Below, one piece after another: positions 9,784 to 19,118 of a DNA stretch of 64,000 bases. Under the pieces are notes generated by a model that was not told where the DNA came from, did no database searches, and saw only the letters and a list, made by a program, of their open reading frames with translations. The DNA lies in the NCBI RefSeq assembly GCF_009931435.1, contig NZ_CP043414.1, one strand, 5' to 3'. This stretch comes from Escherichia coli (GTDB taxonomy: Bacteria > Pseudomonadota > Gammaproteobacteria > Enterobacterales > Enterobacteriaceae). A program made the translations under genes and the position numbers. How positions within the stretch are numbered: position 1 is the stretch's first letter; each line of letters opens with the position of its first letter.

Positions 9784-10177
9784 CAAAATTTTAACACATC
9801 AGAGATCTATCATAATTCAGTAAAATAACAAAATATTATCAGGAACGAGTTAACGCTGCTCATAACAGTCAAACCGATACTATAAAACCCAATAATTGAA
9901 ACCTTTTCATCATGTCAGTAAGATAGTCATCCTTATGATCTTTATATAAAAAAGCCAACCATGGTGGTTGGCAAAGTGGCACAAACCAGCATAAAAGCTA
10001 TGCTTTGTTTAAAAACCTTCTTTAAATTAAATATATATCGTCCTGACTAAACAGAACTAAAACGGAATGAATTATTTAATCATGTTACTAAATTTGATTT
10101 TGTTTAGCCTCTGTTGAGATCCCTTGTTTTAAATTTCATTTGGATAAAATTCTTAATTAAATCCTTGGGAGTCAATT

Positions 10178-10438
10178 ATGTCTATGCAAAGTCAAGGAAT
10201 GAACTTTGAAATGAACCTATACGCATATTTGAATAAATATGATAGTCGGCTTTCAGAAGAAAAACTTGCAATTGATAAGGCAGTTAGAGATTTATATCTT
10301 TGCAACGAACGCGTGGATAACAAGAGAATTATACTGAAATTGCTCTCATTTTTATCATCTGCTGATGACATTGTTGAAAAAGATATTATCAGGAATGCTT
10401 TGGAAGTGGTGCTTCTTTTTACATTAGACGATATTTAA
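10178..10438 (+). CDS. AriR/YmgB-family paralog (86 aa)
   Basis: Clear similarity visible between …RVDNKRIILKLLSFLSSADDIVEKDIIRNALEVVLLFTLDDI and AriR …[44 protein letters not shown]-rich context. Confidence 0.55.
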   Translation: MSMQSQGMNFEMNLYAYLNKYDSRLSEEKLAIDKAVRDLYLCNERVDNKRIILKLLSFLSSADDIVEKDIIRNALEVVLLFTLDDI

Positions 10439-10686
10439 GTCATCTCAGGAGTTTTAATACACGAAGAGTGCCCGGATACTAGCGATTATATTCATATTTA
10501 ATTATGAGTGCGGGGAAAGAGATTATGCATTGGCATATTTCTCTAACGTCCGCGATAGAAAAACAACTTTAAATATAAATAAAGAACAAACCACCTTTGC
10601 ATTCAACCTCATCTGAGCTGACTATAGTACAAATTATATTGATATTCTTTATCAACATCATTGGAACAGAAGAATAAGGCGAAGAA

Positions 10687-11010
10687 ATGAAGTGTATAGT
10701 AATTGATACTGTAATACAACCTTCGTGTGGTATATATTTTTCAGTCATATGGAGCGATATAAAAATGATCATTTGGTATCGTTCAAATATCTTTCTCCCA
10801 CCTGGCAGCATATTTACAGTTATTAAGTCAGGTATTATACTCGAGGATAAAGAATATCCGATCAGTATTTTTAACGTGGCGCTATTCAACAAAAATTTAT
10901 GGAATTTAATCAAAAATAGTCAAGAGTGTCCTACAGAATCAAACAAAATTACGAATAAATGCCTGCATAAGCATTGCATTATGCAAATATGTCCACATGG
11001 TCTCAAGTAA
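10687..11010 (+). CDS. iraM: RssB anti-adaptor IraM (107 aa)
   Basis: 107-aa [25 protein letters not shown]…KICPHGLK matches my recollection of IraM in sequence and length. Confidence 0.75.
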
Positions 11011-11061
11011 TGGGGGTTATTTAACCTTCCCTATATGCTATAGATAAATCTACCAAAAACT

Positions 11062-11099
11062 GCCCCTTCGTAGAGGGGCTCTATGATTTTGTTTTATTT
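11062..11099 (+). terminator. Intrinsic terminator downstream of iraM
   Basis: Hairpin GCCCCT-tcgtag-AGGGGC followed by a T-rich tract tctatgattttgttttattt. Confidence 0.6.
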
Positions 11100-11606
11100 G
11101 AAGGCATGGTGCTGAATGTATTCGTTGAATCCAGATTCAACACCTGAAGCTGCACTTAACCCATAATACTTGTTTCTGGTTCCTCTACCGAGTGGTCAAA
11201 CAATGATATGTATGTGACGTCAGAGTTTATTTTTTTAGTGTTTAATGCTATTAATTTAACGTAGTTACCTATCTTTTTTCTACCTTCTGAACTAACCTTA
11301 GGTTTCAACGTATCCGGCAGGAGGGGCTATCCCCAATCTTAAATTTTGCTTCCCGATTTGCTCAAGCCAAAGTTTTAATTTTACAACCTATAAACCTGAG
11401 TTAAATCAACCTCATGGTGCTGTCTGTTCCCGCTGTGGAACAAGACTCACTGCAACATCTTGCATTCCTAAACTTCGCAGAAGGCGATGGGCAAAAACTG
11501 TACTGTAATGTTATTTCGATGTCTCTTATGGTAAATAGGAGGCGTCGAGGCTAAGTGAGTAGCCTGCTTGCTTCTCAAGCCTGGATACTATCAGCATTCA
11601 CGTCAG

Positions 11607-11645
11607 ATGAAATGATGATATTTCGCGTAAGAAAGAGGCATTTTT
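11607..11645. repeat. 39-bp repeat, copy 2 (iraM to trkG-like intergenic region)
   Basis: ATGAAATGATGATATTTCGCGTAAGAAAGAGGCATTTTT; 37 of 39 identical to 1961..1999. Confidence 0.7.
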
Positions 11646-11744
11646 TTATCAACTTCACATCGGAGATGGTAATAATCCTATGGGTCCAGTCCATATGAGG
11701 GGGTCAACATACTATAAAATTCACAATCATAAATTAACTATATA

Positions 11745-13220
11745 TCAAGAACGCCAAAAAAATCCTGAAAATAGTATAATAACAGGGTAAATTTCAAGTC
11801 GACCAAGAATCATAGCAATACACATGAGATATTTTGCAATATCATTAAGAACACCGAATGAGGATGCGGTAGCCCCAAAACCCAGCCCCATATTATTAAT
11901 GCATGCAGCGACTGTCGCAAATGATGTAAGGAAATCATATCCCATACCGTTTAGCACCAGTATAAAAAACACTGTAAAGAAAGTATAAAGAAAAAAGAAA
12001 CTCCATACAGACCTCATTACGCGGTCTGTAACAATCTTCCCTCCTACATTTACACTAAGCAATGCTCTGGGATGAGAAAGCTGATTTATTTCGTGTTTAC
12101 TTTGTTTAAAAAGTATAAGAAATCTAAGTGATTTAATTCCGCCGCACGTTGAGCCTATACATCCCCCAAAAAAACTTGACAGCAGCAAAAAAACTATCGT
12201 ATGTGTGGGCCAGTTTGAATAATCCTGCGTAGCTAAACCATTATCAGTGAGCATGGAGCTAGCAAGAAAAAACGAATGAACAACACTTCCAGTTAAGTCA
12301 TACATACCTATATGCCAGACCTGGAAAGAGGTAACAATGATAACACCTGAAGCTATTAACAAAAAGAAACGAAGTTCAACATCTCTGAGTAAGGGTTTTA
12401 TTGTTTTCCTGCTTATAACAACATACCAAAGAGTGAAGTTGAAAGCCGATAACAGAGAAAAAGAGCCCGCCACCAGTTCAATCAAATAATTATTGAAATA
12501 ACCGATACTCTCACTATGAGTTGAAAAACCGCCAAGAGAAACTGTAGAAAGTCCATGACAAATAGCATCAAACAACGGCATTCCTGCAAGTCGATAACAA
12601 ACAATACAAGCAATGCCTAATAAAGAATAAGTTATCCAAAGTGTCCGCGACGTATCAGCCAGGCGTGGAGTCAGTTTGTCATCCTTAAATGGTCCTGGCA
12701 TTTCTGACTGATAAAGTTTTGCACCACCAATACCCAATAATGGCAACACAGCAACTGCCAGAACAATAACCCCTAAACCGCCTATAAAATTTAATTGTGA
12801 CCGGTAGAACAAATATGCCCGAGATAATGAACTGACATCATCAATTACTGTTGCTCCTGTTGTTGTTATTCCGGAAACCCCTTCAAACAGCGCGTCAGCA
12901 AACGTTAAATTAAGCTCTGAATCAATCCATAATGGAAATGCGCTAATAATAGAAAATAAAATCCAAAACATTACAATTATAATAAACCCATCACGGGTGC
13001 GTAATTGAATGCCAGATTTTTTAGTGGTATACCACGCTCCGCCACCAATACAAAAAAATATAACAAAAGTAATAAAAAAAACGAACAAGCTTTTTTCTTT
13101 ATAAAACAATGCTACAACCATTGGTGGTAACATTGAAAGACTATAGAGCCAGACCAAGAACCCACACATATGAGTTACAACTCTTACATGAGATGTATTC
13201 ATATCCAAATGTTCTTTCAA
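11745..13220 (-). CDS. trkG: TrkH/TrkG-family potassium uptake membrane protein (491 aa), TrkG-like
   Basis: Polytopic membrane ORF with glycine-rich selectivity-type motifs (SGITTTGATV, IGGLG, GGFSTH, GCIGSTCGG); clearly not the housekeeping TrkH sequence; markedly AT-rich gene. Confidence 0.65.
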   Translation of the reverse strand: MKEHLDMNTSHVRVVTHMCGFLVWLYSLSMLPPMVVALFYKEKSLFVFFITFVIFFCIGGGAWYTTKKSGIQLRTRDGFIIIVMFWILFSIISAFPLWIDSELNLTFADALFEGVSGITTTGATVIDDVSSLSRAYLFYRSQLNFIGGLGVIVLAVAVLPLLGIGGAKLYQSEMPGPFKDDKLTPRLADTSRTLWITYSLLGIACIVCYRLAGMPLFDAICHGLSTVSLGGFSTHSESIGYFNNYLIELVAGSFSLLSAFNFTLWYVVISRKTIKPLLRDVELRFFLLIASGVIIVTSFQVWHIGMYDLTGSVVHSFFLASSMLTDNGLATQDYSNWPTHTIVFLLLSSFFGGCIGSTCGGIKSLRFLILFKQSKHEINQLSHPRALLSVNVGGKIVTDRVMRSVWSFFFLYTFFTVFFILVLNGMGYDFLTSFATVAACINNMGLGFGATASSFGVLNDIAKYLMCIAMILGRLEIYPVIILFSGFFWRS

Positions 13221-13629
13221 TTATAACCACCTTACTGCAATGTCATGATTATACTGTATAAATTTTAACTCTTCTTAGATCTTACTTCACTGGTCCTTAT
13301 GAAACAATCAGCAAAATGAATCTTATTATAACACTGTTCGGTTATGTATTGTTGAGCCTTCCCGCTGGGCCTGCATCATTACAAGTCGCTCCCTATGGGG
13401 CTTTGTCGAATAAATAATTTTTCGGTAAGTGTCCCCTGAGCAGGTTGTATCTTCAGGCAGTATGAACACTTTCTGGTATACCTACCTTCGTCATTATGTT
13501 CAGCGTATGCACCATGACCAAAGCCTCTGCAACCGGCCTATCATAATCTAGCAGCATCAGAGAACCTCAGAATAACTGTTTTACCCTGTACATTGCCGTT
13601 TCCGCTATTGAGCAACGATTGTAATCTTT

Positions 13630-15617
<1,988 letters not shown>

Positions 15618-16113
15618 TCAATCGCTGATACGCGACTGCACAGTTACGGTCGGCATACTCACCGGGCCAGTAACCCGCTCCTTTTTGGGGTGGGATGAGC
15701 GCGCTGATTTTCACACGGCGCAGCTGCTCGTAACAGAGCCGAGAGGCGTAAACTCCGTCTGCTGCTGTCCTGATTTTTTGATGGGTTTGCCGGATTAATC
15801 CGGCTACACCTCTACATCCGTTACGCTGAATGCTGAGGTCGCCCTTGGGAAGAAGGCATTGCTGACTTATACCAATCCGAAATCACCTACTCGTCCAACC
15901 AGACAGGGAGGGGCCTCGGTTGATAAGAGCTCTGTTATTGATGTGCCAGTTGGTGATTCTAACTTTTGCTTTGTAACGGGACGAGCCGTGTTGGCAGATG
16001 ATGTGTGGTCTGATCCTTAAACTCAGTAAAAGTACGATTTATTCAAAAAAGCCCCTCCACTATGATTTCGATTTAAGGGGCTGATGATTATGTAACGCGA
16101 ATTTACCGGATCC

Positions 16114-17499
<1,386 letters not shown>

Positions 17500-17810
17500 T
17501 CAGGGGGGTTGATATTCCGGATCGTGCCGTGTTTGCCCACGGCTCCCCCTGGAGAGCTGCAGACCTGTTTATTTAACTCGCACAGCGCCGGGGCCTGTCA
17601 GTAAACAGGGAGCATAACCGTCGTGCCATTAAACGCCAGACGGGAGATCATTATTATTTTATTAATACAGATCCGTTGCATTCCGGTCTTTACCGCAGTT
17701 TAAAAGAAAAGAGAATAGGGACTTAGGCAGTAGAGCAGTCATTGGACAGACCACACTACCCCAAACTAGCAGGGGAGTTTTGATAAAATTTTAATAACCG
17801 TTAGCAGGCT

Positions 17811-17844
17811 AACAAAAAAACAACGGGCGTGTTATACGCCCGTT
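17811..17844 (-). terminator. Intrinsic terminator of icd
   Basis: On the minus strand, hairpin AACGGGCG-tataaca-CGCCCGTT followed by a U-run (plus-strand A7 at 17814-17820), just after the icd stop. Confidence 0.7.
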
Positions 17845-17867
17845 TCAATATTTAACACATGTAGTGA

Positions 17868-19118
17868 TTACATATTCTTGATGATCGCGTCACCAAACTC
17901 TGAACATTTCAGCAGTTTAGCGCCTTCCATCAGACGTTCGAAGTCATAGGTTACGGTCTTGGCATTGATTGCGCCTTCCATACCTTTAACAATCAGGTCA
18001 GCCGCTTCAGTCCAACCCATATGGCGCAGCATCATCTCAGCGGAGAGGATGATAGAGCCTGGGTTAACTTTGTCCTGACCAGCATACTTCGGCGCAGTAC
18101 CGTGGGTGGCTTCAAACAGCGCGCATTCGTCACCGATGTTTGCGCCTGGGGCGATACCGATACCGCCAACCTGCGCTGCCAGAGCATCAGAAATGTAGTC
18201 ACCGTTGAGGTTCATACAGGCGATAACGTCGTATTCAGCCGGACGCAGCAGGATCTGTTGCAGGAATGCGTCAGCAATCACGTCTTTAATAACGATCTCT
18301 TTGCCGGTGTTCGGGTTTTTGACTTTCAGCCACGGCCCGCCGTCGATCAGTTCACCGCCAAACTCTTCACGCGCCAGCTGGTAACCCCAGTCTTTAAACG
18401 CGCCTTCGGTGAACTTCATGATGTTGCCTTTGTGCACCAGGGTCACAGAGTCACGGTCGTTAGCAATTGCGTATTCGATCGCGGCACGAACCAGACGTTT
18501 GGTGCCTTCTTCCGAACACGGCTTGATACCGATACCGCAATGTTCCGGGAAGCGAATTTTCTTCACGCCCATCTCTTCACGCAGGAATTTAATCACTTTC
18601 TCAGCGTCGGCAGAATCAGCTTTCCATTCGATACCCGCATAAATGTCTTCCGAGTTTTCACGGAAGATAACCATATCGGTCAGTTCAGGATGTTTAACCG
18701 GGCTTGGGGTGCCCTGATAGTAACGTACCGGACGCAGGCAGATGTAGAGATCCAGTTCCTGACGCAGAGCTACGTTGAGAGAACGAATACCGCCGCCAAC
18801 CGGAGTGGTCAGAGGGCCTTTAATGGCAACGCGATATTCACGAATCAGATCAAGGGTTTCAGCAGGCAGCCAGACGTCCTGACCATAAACCTGTGTGGAT
18901 TTTTCACCGGTGTAAATTTCCATCCAGGAGATTTTACGCTCGCCTTTATAGGCTTTCTCGACTGCAGCGTCGACCACTTTCAGCATGGCTGGGGTTACAT
19001 CTACACCGATTCCATCACCTTCAATGTAAGGGATAATCGGATTTTCAGGAACGTTGAGTTTGCCGTTTTGCAGGGTGATCTTCTTGCCTTGTGCCGGAAC
19101 AACTACTTTACTTTCCAT
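17868..19118 (-). CDS. icd: Isocitrate dehydrogenase (NADP), 416 aa
   Basis: Full-length 416-aa ORF with characteristic IDH sequence (…[13 protein letters not shown]…); synteny with rluE. Confidence 0.95.

Follow-up and report, generated by a model that had tools for sequence, protein, structure and literature searches.

The trkG gene at the icd locus

We analysed a stretch of 64,000 nucleotides of Escherichia coli DNA (assembly GCF_009931435.1, contig NZ_CP043414.1), called here the window, in which a gene of the TrkG type, encoding a membrane subunit of a potassium uptake system, lies between icd and iraM. The gene order in the window runs ycgX, an AriR-like gene, iraM, a spacer, the trkG cassette (11695-13393), an IS5-family insertion sequence (IS) remnant split by an IS100 element, an open reading frame (ORF) of 455 amino acids (aa), referred to below as ORF455, and icd. 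In K-12, as an earlier note on this DNA had stated, trkG is found at another locus, within the Rac prophage. Rac lies there at ttcA, and the icd-iraM interval holds e14, then icdC and iraM. The features on which our argument depends are the following.

11745-13202, minus strand: trkG coding sequence, 485 aa, ATG start, TGA stop; TrkH-family membrane subunit of the Trk K+ uptake system
13203-13330, minus strand: conserved 5' region of trkG, presumed promoter and leader carried with the cassette; nearly invariant across the window, Rac-type and Escherichia albertii alleles
13331-13394, minus strand: Rz spanin gene of a lambdoid phage, relic of its 3' end, 63 bp, about the 24 last codons, directly upstream of trkG
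11695-11744, minus strand: 3' tail of the trkG cassette, about 50 bp, homologous to Rac-type phages; all phage-context homology ends at 11695, and ynaK, the next phage gene, is absent
17725-17820, minus strand: e14-like left-end (attL-side) scar, about 96 bp, adjoining the icd terminator; matches the left end of K-12 e14 and not the native icdC flank
17868-19118, minus strand: icd, the integration target of e14/phage-21-type prophages; 3' end mosaic, with native-type and phage-type polymorphisms

The ORF at 11745-13220 on the minus strand is present as a 491-aa frame with a TTG start. The conserved trkG start is the ATG at 13202, and the 485 aa which it yields agree in length and N-terminus (MNTSHVRV...) with K-12 TrkG and with WP_001360580.1, so that the upper coordinate of 13220 given in the earlier note has to be lowered by 18 nt. 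The protein is identical to RefSeq WP_001360580.1, named 'Trk system potassium transporter TrkG'. In pairwise alignments it shares 468 of 485 residues with K-12 TrkG (96%) and 195 of 482 with K-12 TrkH (40%). PF02386 (TrkH) matches residues 40-483 with 477.5 bits, and the TrkH-family subfamily model TIGR00933 is passed with 406 bits (cut-off 331), while the TrkH equivalog NF008020 stays far under its cut-off (448 bits against 866). The Vibrio parahaemolyticus TrkH structures 4J9U and 3PJZ align full-length with the window protein (residues 7-485, E about 1e-118). None of its 17 substitutions relative to K-12 TrkG falls at the selectivity-filter glycines G116, G225, G322 and G439 or at the acidic residues D121, E231 and D327; among these residues, whose roles are taken from the K-12 work, D121, E231 and D327 are linked to Na+ activation, D327 specifically in that study (PMC9898762). 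These comparisons show that the gene is intact and belongs to the TrkG lineage.

With a GC content of 37.4% and 29.2% GC at third codon positions, against 50.8 and 54.2% in the adjacent icd and 53.1 and 62.6% in K-12 trkH, the composition of the gene is clearly foreign, and the strong AT-richness described in the earlier note is borne out. The neighbours named there are in place as well, IS100 at 430 bp and iraM at 735 bp from trkG. That note had also said what would speak against it, namely a vertically inherited TrkH ortholog, and the alignments to TrkG and TrkH (96% and 40%) give a different answer: its horizontally acquired TrkG-like paralog agrees with both identities, with the equivalog score, with the GC content and with the distribution of trkH, which is present in 5425 of the 5426 complete E. 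coli genomes that make up our survey set, and so in at least 17 of the 18 genomes that carry the islet. Since trkH is nearly universal, the window trkG is an accessory paralog, the presence of trkH being read from relatives; it is also the sole trkG in nearly all carriers, for at most 2 of 1554 trkG-positive records have two copies. K-12 trkH lies between yigZ and hemG, and the window gene is placed at icd-iraM instead of in the order pepQ-yigZ-trkH-hemG.

The region of about 130 bp upstream of trkG is conserved in three alleles and contains two TATAAT hexamers, with no consensus promoter called; the terminator-like hairpin nearest to the gene on its sense strand is found at 11062-11079, 670 bp downstream.

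Probable traces of a prophage around trkG

The relic directly upstream of trkG encodes RERLVMMQAQREG and, after a 2-bp frameshift, AQQYITEQC, and the region of the stop codon is deleted; the Rac-type Rz C-terminus reads, for comparison, ...RERLVMMQAQLEGAQQYITEQCLK*. From the position of this relic it follows that trkG was formerly located directly downstream of a lambdoid lysis cassette, as it is in Rac, and the derivation of the islet from a Rac-like element, which the earlier note had offered as one of two readings, gains a concrete trace in this frameshifted Rz end. BLASTN homology with every phage-borne trkG (K-12 Rac, a complete Rac-like prophage, two icd-integrated remnants, 49 IMG/VR contigs and plasmids) is bounded by 13393 and 11695. 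In Rac, in the full Rac-like prophage, in the icd-integrated remnants and in the 49 viral contigs trkG always lies between Rz and ynaK, with identical homology borders and a GC content of 37-38%. It has, in other words, the marks of a moron, that is a fixed slot between phage operons and a composition unlike that of its neighbours. The other reading of the earlier note, that the same cargo travels in different mobile contexts, holds for trkG itself, which is found on Rac at ttcA, on the 49 IMG/VR contigs, on plasmids and in icd-integrated remnants in 14 genomes; the part which tied this to the neighbouring IS100 does not stand, as the element, absent from 18 relatives and flanked by its own 5-bp duplication, was uninvolved in the arrival of the gene.

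The second scar lies at the other end of the islet, about 4.5 kb from trkG (2.6 kb without IS100). One relative (locus L071) has a newer e14-like prophage in icd, after which come attR/icdC and then the same scar, ORF455 and trkG; as the scar is situated beyond the attR/icdC of the newer prophage, it belongs to an older integration. The 3' end of icd is mosaic over 17868-18060, where native polymorphisms, of the icdC type, alternate with phage-type ones. The e14-like scar and this mosaic are traces of repeated prophage traffic at the attachment site. Finally, the order and orientation icd ... Rz-trkG ... iraM equals that of degraded lambdoid prophages at icd (loci L003 and L004), a layout present in 14 genomes.

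Judging from these features of the sequence, we consider it quite probable that a prophage remnant decayed between icd and iraM and left a functional accessory trkG as its main survivor. We propose that a temperate phage, carrying trkG as cargo directly after its lysis cassette, entered the chromosome of an ancestor of the lineage at the icd hotspot, which would correspond at least partly to Escherichia cryptic clade I. Deletions, probably mediated by the IS5-family element, would then have removed phage genes on both sides, attR included; since the IS5-family remnant abuts the Rz relic, an IS-mediated adjacent deletion is a likely route of decay. The trkG gene with its own upstream region may have been kept for a benefit to the host, which we extrapolate from the K-12 allele. 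K-12 TrkG is a pore subunit that works with TrkA in Na+-dependent K+ uptake, admits some Na+ and complements TrkH; its gene is partly repressed by H-NS, a damping tied to AT-richness, yet it is not silenced and supports growth (PMC9898762). By analogy, the window TrkG would act as a pore subunit with the host TrkA, providing Na+-dependent uptake of K+ and of some Na+, and its expression would be damped by H-NS.

A number of observations weigh against this reading. Two short scars and the gene order are what the prophage origin is based on, and a deletion could have joined an e14-like scar and a Rac-like Rz-trkG junction that stem from separate elements. Between ycgX and icd there is no integrase ORF and no second copy of the icd 3' end (icdC/attR), and phage lysis, replication and structural genes are absent beyond the 63-bp Rz relic and the e14-like scar of about 96 bp. 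No phage, viral contig or plasmid was found to have the window-type allele, as the 49 IMG/VR loci, the INPHARED phages and the plasmids carry the Rac type only, and two allele-specific 26-mer searches of IMG/VR gave no match. Homologues of ORF455, the neighbour of trkG on the icd side, occupy a non-phage site elsewhere. On the side of function, what is proposed for expression, Na+ dependence and a fitness benefit is carried over from the K-12 allele, the promoter scan called no full sigma-70 consensus upstream of trkG, and H-NS could silence the window gene. As integrase, icdC and structural genes are missing, the islet is best described as a decayed prophage relic and not as a prophage; attachment-site repeats bounding it were not found either.

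Outside E. coli, the TrkG-like proteins of Buttiauxella and Morganella (61-68% aa identity) are apparently encoded by native chromosomal genes, among housekeeping genes and with host-like GC, and trkG homologues of about 66-69% nucleotide identity are found on Cronobacter, Pluralibacter and Raoultella plasmids. It is possible that these chromosomal genes and plasmid homologues are relatives of the pre-phage source of trkG. We also considered the Rz-like stretch as a native part of TrkG-like loci and rejected this, as no such stretch is there at the Morganella and Buttiauxella loci.

The allele and its neighbourhood

Window-type and Rac-type trkG differ in 9.3% of their nucleotides, with a synonymous divergence (dS) of 0.45 and a ratio of nonsynonymous to synonymous divergence (dN/dS) of 0.04, and either E. 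coli allele is separated from E. albertii trkG by a dS of about 0.9 at a dN/dS of 0.04-0.05. For flanking core genes of the window compared to K-12 dS is 0.09-0.22 and dN/dS 0.00-0.08. When the tree is rooted on E. albertii, the branches leading to the window and Rac alleles are equal in length (6 and 8 aa changes, 56 and 63 nucleotide changes, respectively), and from this it follows that selection on the window copy has not been relaxed. The window trkG is thereby shown to be an old allele under strong purifying selection. Judged by its dS of 0.45, the copy is a distinct allele and not a recent transfer from a Rac of the K-12 type. The trkG alleles form at least three deep groups, two of which, the window-type and that of E. 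albertii, survive only as orphan relics.

These data bear directly on the suggestion that trkG is an inert fossil, a silenced and functionless gene which looks intact and has yet to decay. Such a fate would suit AT-rich DNA of the H-NS-repressed type, given the partial H-NS repression of K-12 trkG (PMC9898762), the missing consensus promoter and surroundings that have all decayed. However, a dN/dS of 0.04 maintained over a dS of 0.45 without an excess of aa changes on the window branch, an identical protein on at least 1000 contigs of diverged carriers, the retention of all functional residues, the conservation of the upstream 130 bp across three alleles, and growth supported by a K-12 gene that is repressed without being silenced make a fossil improbable in our opinion.

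The gene trkG occurs in 1550 of the 5426 genomes and is absent from 71%. The window-type allele (at least 99% identity) is found in 18 of them, and all other trkG are at most 90.7% identical to it; the block 9824-17817, apart from IS100, is present in those same 18 and in no other complete E. coli genome. Two sequences whose proteins looked divergent (L055 and L058) were discarded as a source of the window-type allele; they are frameshifted or ambiguous Rac-type copies. In the assembly collection 1066 blocks of the index contain the exact TrkG protein, which was seen on at least 1000 contigs, and the icd-ORF455-trkG-iraM context was the same in all 24 long contigs read for it. The carriers 2013C-4282 and 3057 are documented as Escherichia cryptic clade I (PMC10100065), and among the members of the iraM and ORF455 clusters are clade I strains that had been deposited under the name 'Escherichia sp.'. 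Over 46 kb of core the window and K-12 show 96.9% identity; the best value for the window with any complete genome is 99.0% (purB-phoQ), its own strain being absent from the complete-genome set. As the core has this distance to K-12 and the nearest relatives include clade I strains, the window probably comes from Escherichia cryptic clade I.

Could the gene simply be inherited vertically, either as the lineage's own TrkH ortholog or as an ancestral Escherichia trkG which remained in its original locus and was lost elsewhere? The allele tree ((window, Rac-type), E. albertii) mirrors the host relationships, allele divergence tracks that of the hosts at about 2-3 times the core dS, and the islet is stably inherited in a diverse lineage. 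TrkH orthology is refuted by the 40% identity, by the equivalog score under cut-off, by trkH itself, which is present in all genomes of the survey except one, by the GC content of 37% versus 51% in the flanks and by the Rz scar. Further points against vertical inheritance are the three alleles at three loci (icd-iraM, ttcA/Rac and the yebZ-pphA region) and the 71% of E. coli genomes that have no copy. Taking both forms together, we regard vertical inheritance as scarcely credible.

The remaining features of the neighbourhood are these.

9379-9783: ycgX
10178-10438, plus strand: extra YmgB/AriR-family gene (PF10798), at the place of K-12 ymgK/ymgL
10687-11010, plus strand: iraM (anti-adaptor), an allele divergent from that of K-12 (about 80% nucleotide identity); NF007393 143.6 bits, cut-off 121
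11048-11694, no strand: lineage-specific non-coding spacer between trkG and iraM, about 650 bp, with a bidirectional terminator-like hairpin at 11062-11079
13453-13630, minus strand: IS5/IS1182-family transposase remnant, C-terminal part, adjoining the Rz relic; annotated as a pseudogene by the prokaryotic genome annotation pipeline in locus L001 (17454-17843) and common to all 18 relatives
13631-15584, minus strand: IS100-type IS21-family element, 1954 bp; istA 14476-15498 and istB 13697-14479, both intact
15585-15801, minus strand: second part of the IS5/IS1182-family remnant
16114-17481, minus strand: ORF455, with internal repeats of about 150 aa and a distinct C-terminus

Two IS-derived sequences stand directly upstream of trkG, and IS elements commonly reshuffle prophage DNA, so a recent move of trkG within the genome, from a resident Rac to icd through IS100 or IS5-family elements acting as a composite transposon, had to be weighed. 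The IS100-type element has terminal inverted repeats and its own 5-bp target duplication, CTTTT, and sits inside the older IS5/IS1182-family remnant. It is missing from all 18 related complete genomes, where a coverage of 81% corresponds to everything but the element; it is therefore a late, strain-specific insertion that had no role in bringing trkG, having arrived after the islet. Of the IS5 family there is one remnant, on one side, with no flanking pair or target duplication around trkG such as a composite transposon would leave, and the allele differs from all Rac-type copies by the 9.3% of nucleotides and the dS of 0.45 given above. To a relocation of this kind we allow next to no chance. 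The IS5-family remnant itself showed no nucleotide similarity to K-12 IS5.

A further point to be set against our reading is that the whole variant interval (AriR-like gene, iraM variant, trkG and ORF455) may have been gained as a block, through homologous recombination with another clade or species of Escherichia; the decay would then have taken place in the donor. The iraM allele with about 80% identity to K-12, the block borders in the conserved ycgX and icd, the mosaic 3' end of icd, and a dS of 0.21 in icd and rluE against 0.09-0.15 in genes further away would fit such an import. No donor was found among one genome per GTDB species, and we hold the import to be unlikely, though less so than the alternatives above; it would alter only where the decay happened and would leave the islet a prophage relic with a functional trkG.

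The iraM gene is convergent with trkG. The spacer of 11048-11694 between them is matched in full length solely in the 18 islet-carrying genomes; it holds neither ynaK nor other coding remnants, with no ORF above 50 aa, and outside these 18 genomes its DNA similarity is limited to one 40-bp motif. Copies of this motif (11606-11645) with 93-95% identity are found in thousands of E. coli genomes, close to ymgJ and further hypothetical genes. IraM and YcgX each match PHROG families, so that the interval from ycgX to icd may as a whole be of old phage origin in all E. coli.

ORF455 has no match in Pfam, NCBIfam or PADLOC; its C-terminus gives weak PHROG matches and contains two helix-turn-helix-like repeats, and its AlphaFold2 model is unusable, with a mean predicted local distance difference test score of 44. 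The homologues are Escherichia hypothetical proteins only (54-61% identity), which differ in repeat copy number; in other E. coli they stand as insertions of one gene between ygjK and fadH. Between icd and ORF455 Rfam gives a sub-threshold match to the Salmonella Hfq-binding small RNA STnc150 (17655-17854, plus strand; 31.7 bits against a gathering threshold of 60, E 0.001), which overlaps the e14-like scar.

Meaning and known systems

That TrkG is carried on Rac is textbook knowledge, and RefSeq already names the window protein TrkG. What our analysis adds is the icd-iraM locus with its scars, the fixed Rz-ynaK slot in lambdoid phages of at least two integration sites (ttcA and icd), and the three deep allele groups. 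To call trkG the Rac gene is thus too narrow, as it is a cassette with a constant place in lambdoid genomes which differ in their integration sites. We see the islet as a clean sequence-level case of phage cargo turned into a host gene, in which the scars mark the phage site, and the age and dN/dS mark selection on the cargo. Current understanding is not overturned by this; it is a case of cargo outliving its phage, with no new kind of system. With its trkG allele, iraM variant and ORF455 the islet may be of use for recognising Escherichia cryptic clade I, and the analogy with K-12 suggests that the lineage has a Na+-dependent K+ uptake route which about 70% of E. coli lack.

Compared to K-12 TrkG (b1363, Rac), the window protein has the same 485 aa, 96% identity, the same pore glycines and D121/E231/D327, and its gene the same upstream region, Rz junction and low GC. 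In contrast to it, the window gene is located at icd-iraM and not at ttcA, all other Rac genes are missing, and with 9.3% nucleotide divergence it belongs to a separate allele group known only from chromosomal relics. With TrkH (b3849) the window protein shares PF02386 and the fold class, as it aligns to the Vibrio TrkH structures, and presumably also the TrkA partner (PMC9898762), whereas the 40% identity, the equivalog score under cut-off, the locus and the composition set the two apart. The TrkG of K-12, unlike its TrkH, depends on Na+ and is modulated by H-NS (PMC9898762). With K-12 e14 the window has in common the icd 3' end as attachment site and the e14-like left end of about 96 bp after icd; e14 is without trkG, however, and the window is without any other e14 sequence.

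Alike in layout are the icd-integrated lambdoid remnants, for example those of strains DY612 and 2018-11-1BCC, which have the same hotspot, order and orientation, icd ... Rz, trkG ... iraM. Unlike the window islet, they keep int/xis, holin, lysozyme, a full Rz, ynaK, mcrBC and icdC, carry the Rac-type allele (99.9% to K-12) and have an attL flank that is not e14-like.

The islet of E. albertii NBRC 107761 resembles that of the window in another way. It also has an orphan trkG with the conserved upstream region, a degenerate Rz-like stretch and a GC content of 38%, and there are no phage genes within 10 kb of it; in this non-phage setting (L008, 9819-13043) the gene lies between genes on the yebZ/copD side and an NleF-like effector gene, pphA, rsmF and letB. 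It differs as a third allele (85% nucleotide and 93% aa identity), at a third locus and in another species, and looks like another orphan prophage relic. From this comparison we would suggest, as a tentative idea, that trkG is a repeatedly domesticated phage gene which, being under strong purifying selection, outlives its prophage and keeps the region upstream of it and a scar of Rz, and has perhaps done so in at least three independent places, namely in Rac of K-12-type E. coli, in the icd-iraM islet of clade I and in the yebZ-pphA islet of E. albertii, the icd-iraM copy being possibly an old and near-fixed marker of clade I that gives its carriers a second, Na+-coupled route for K+.

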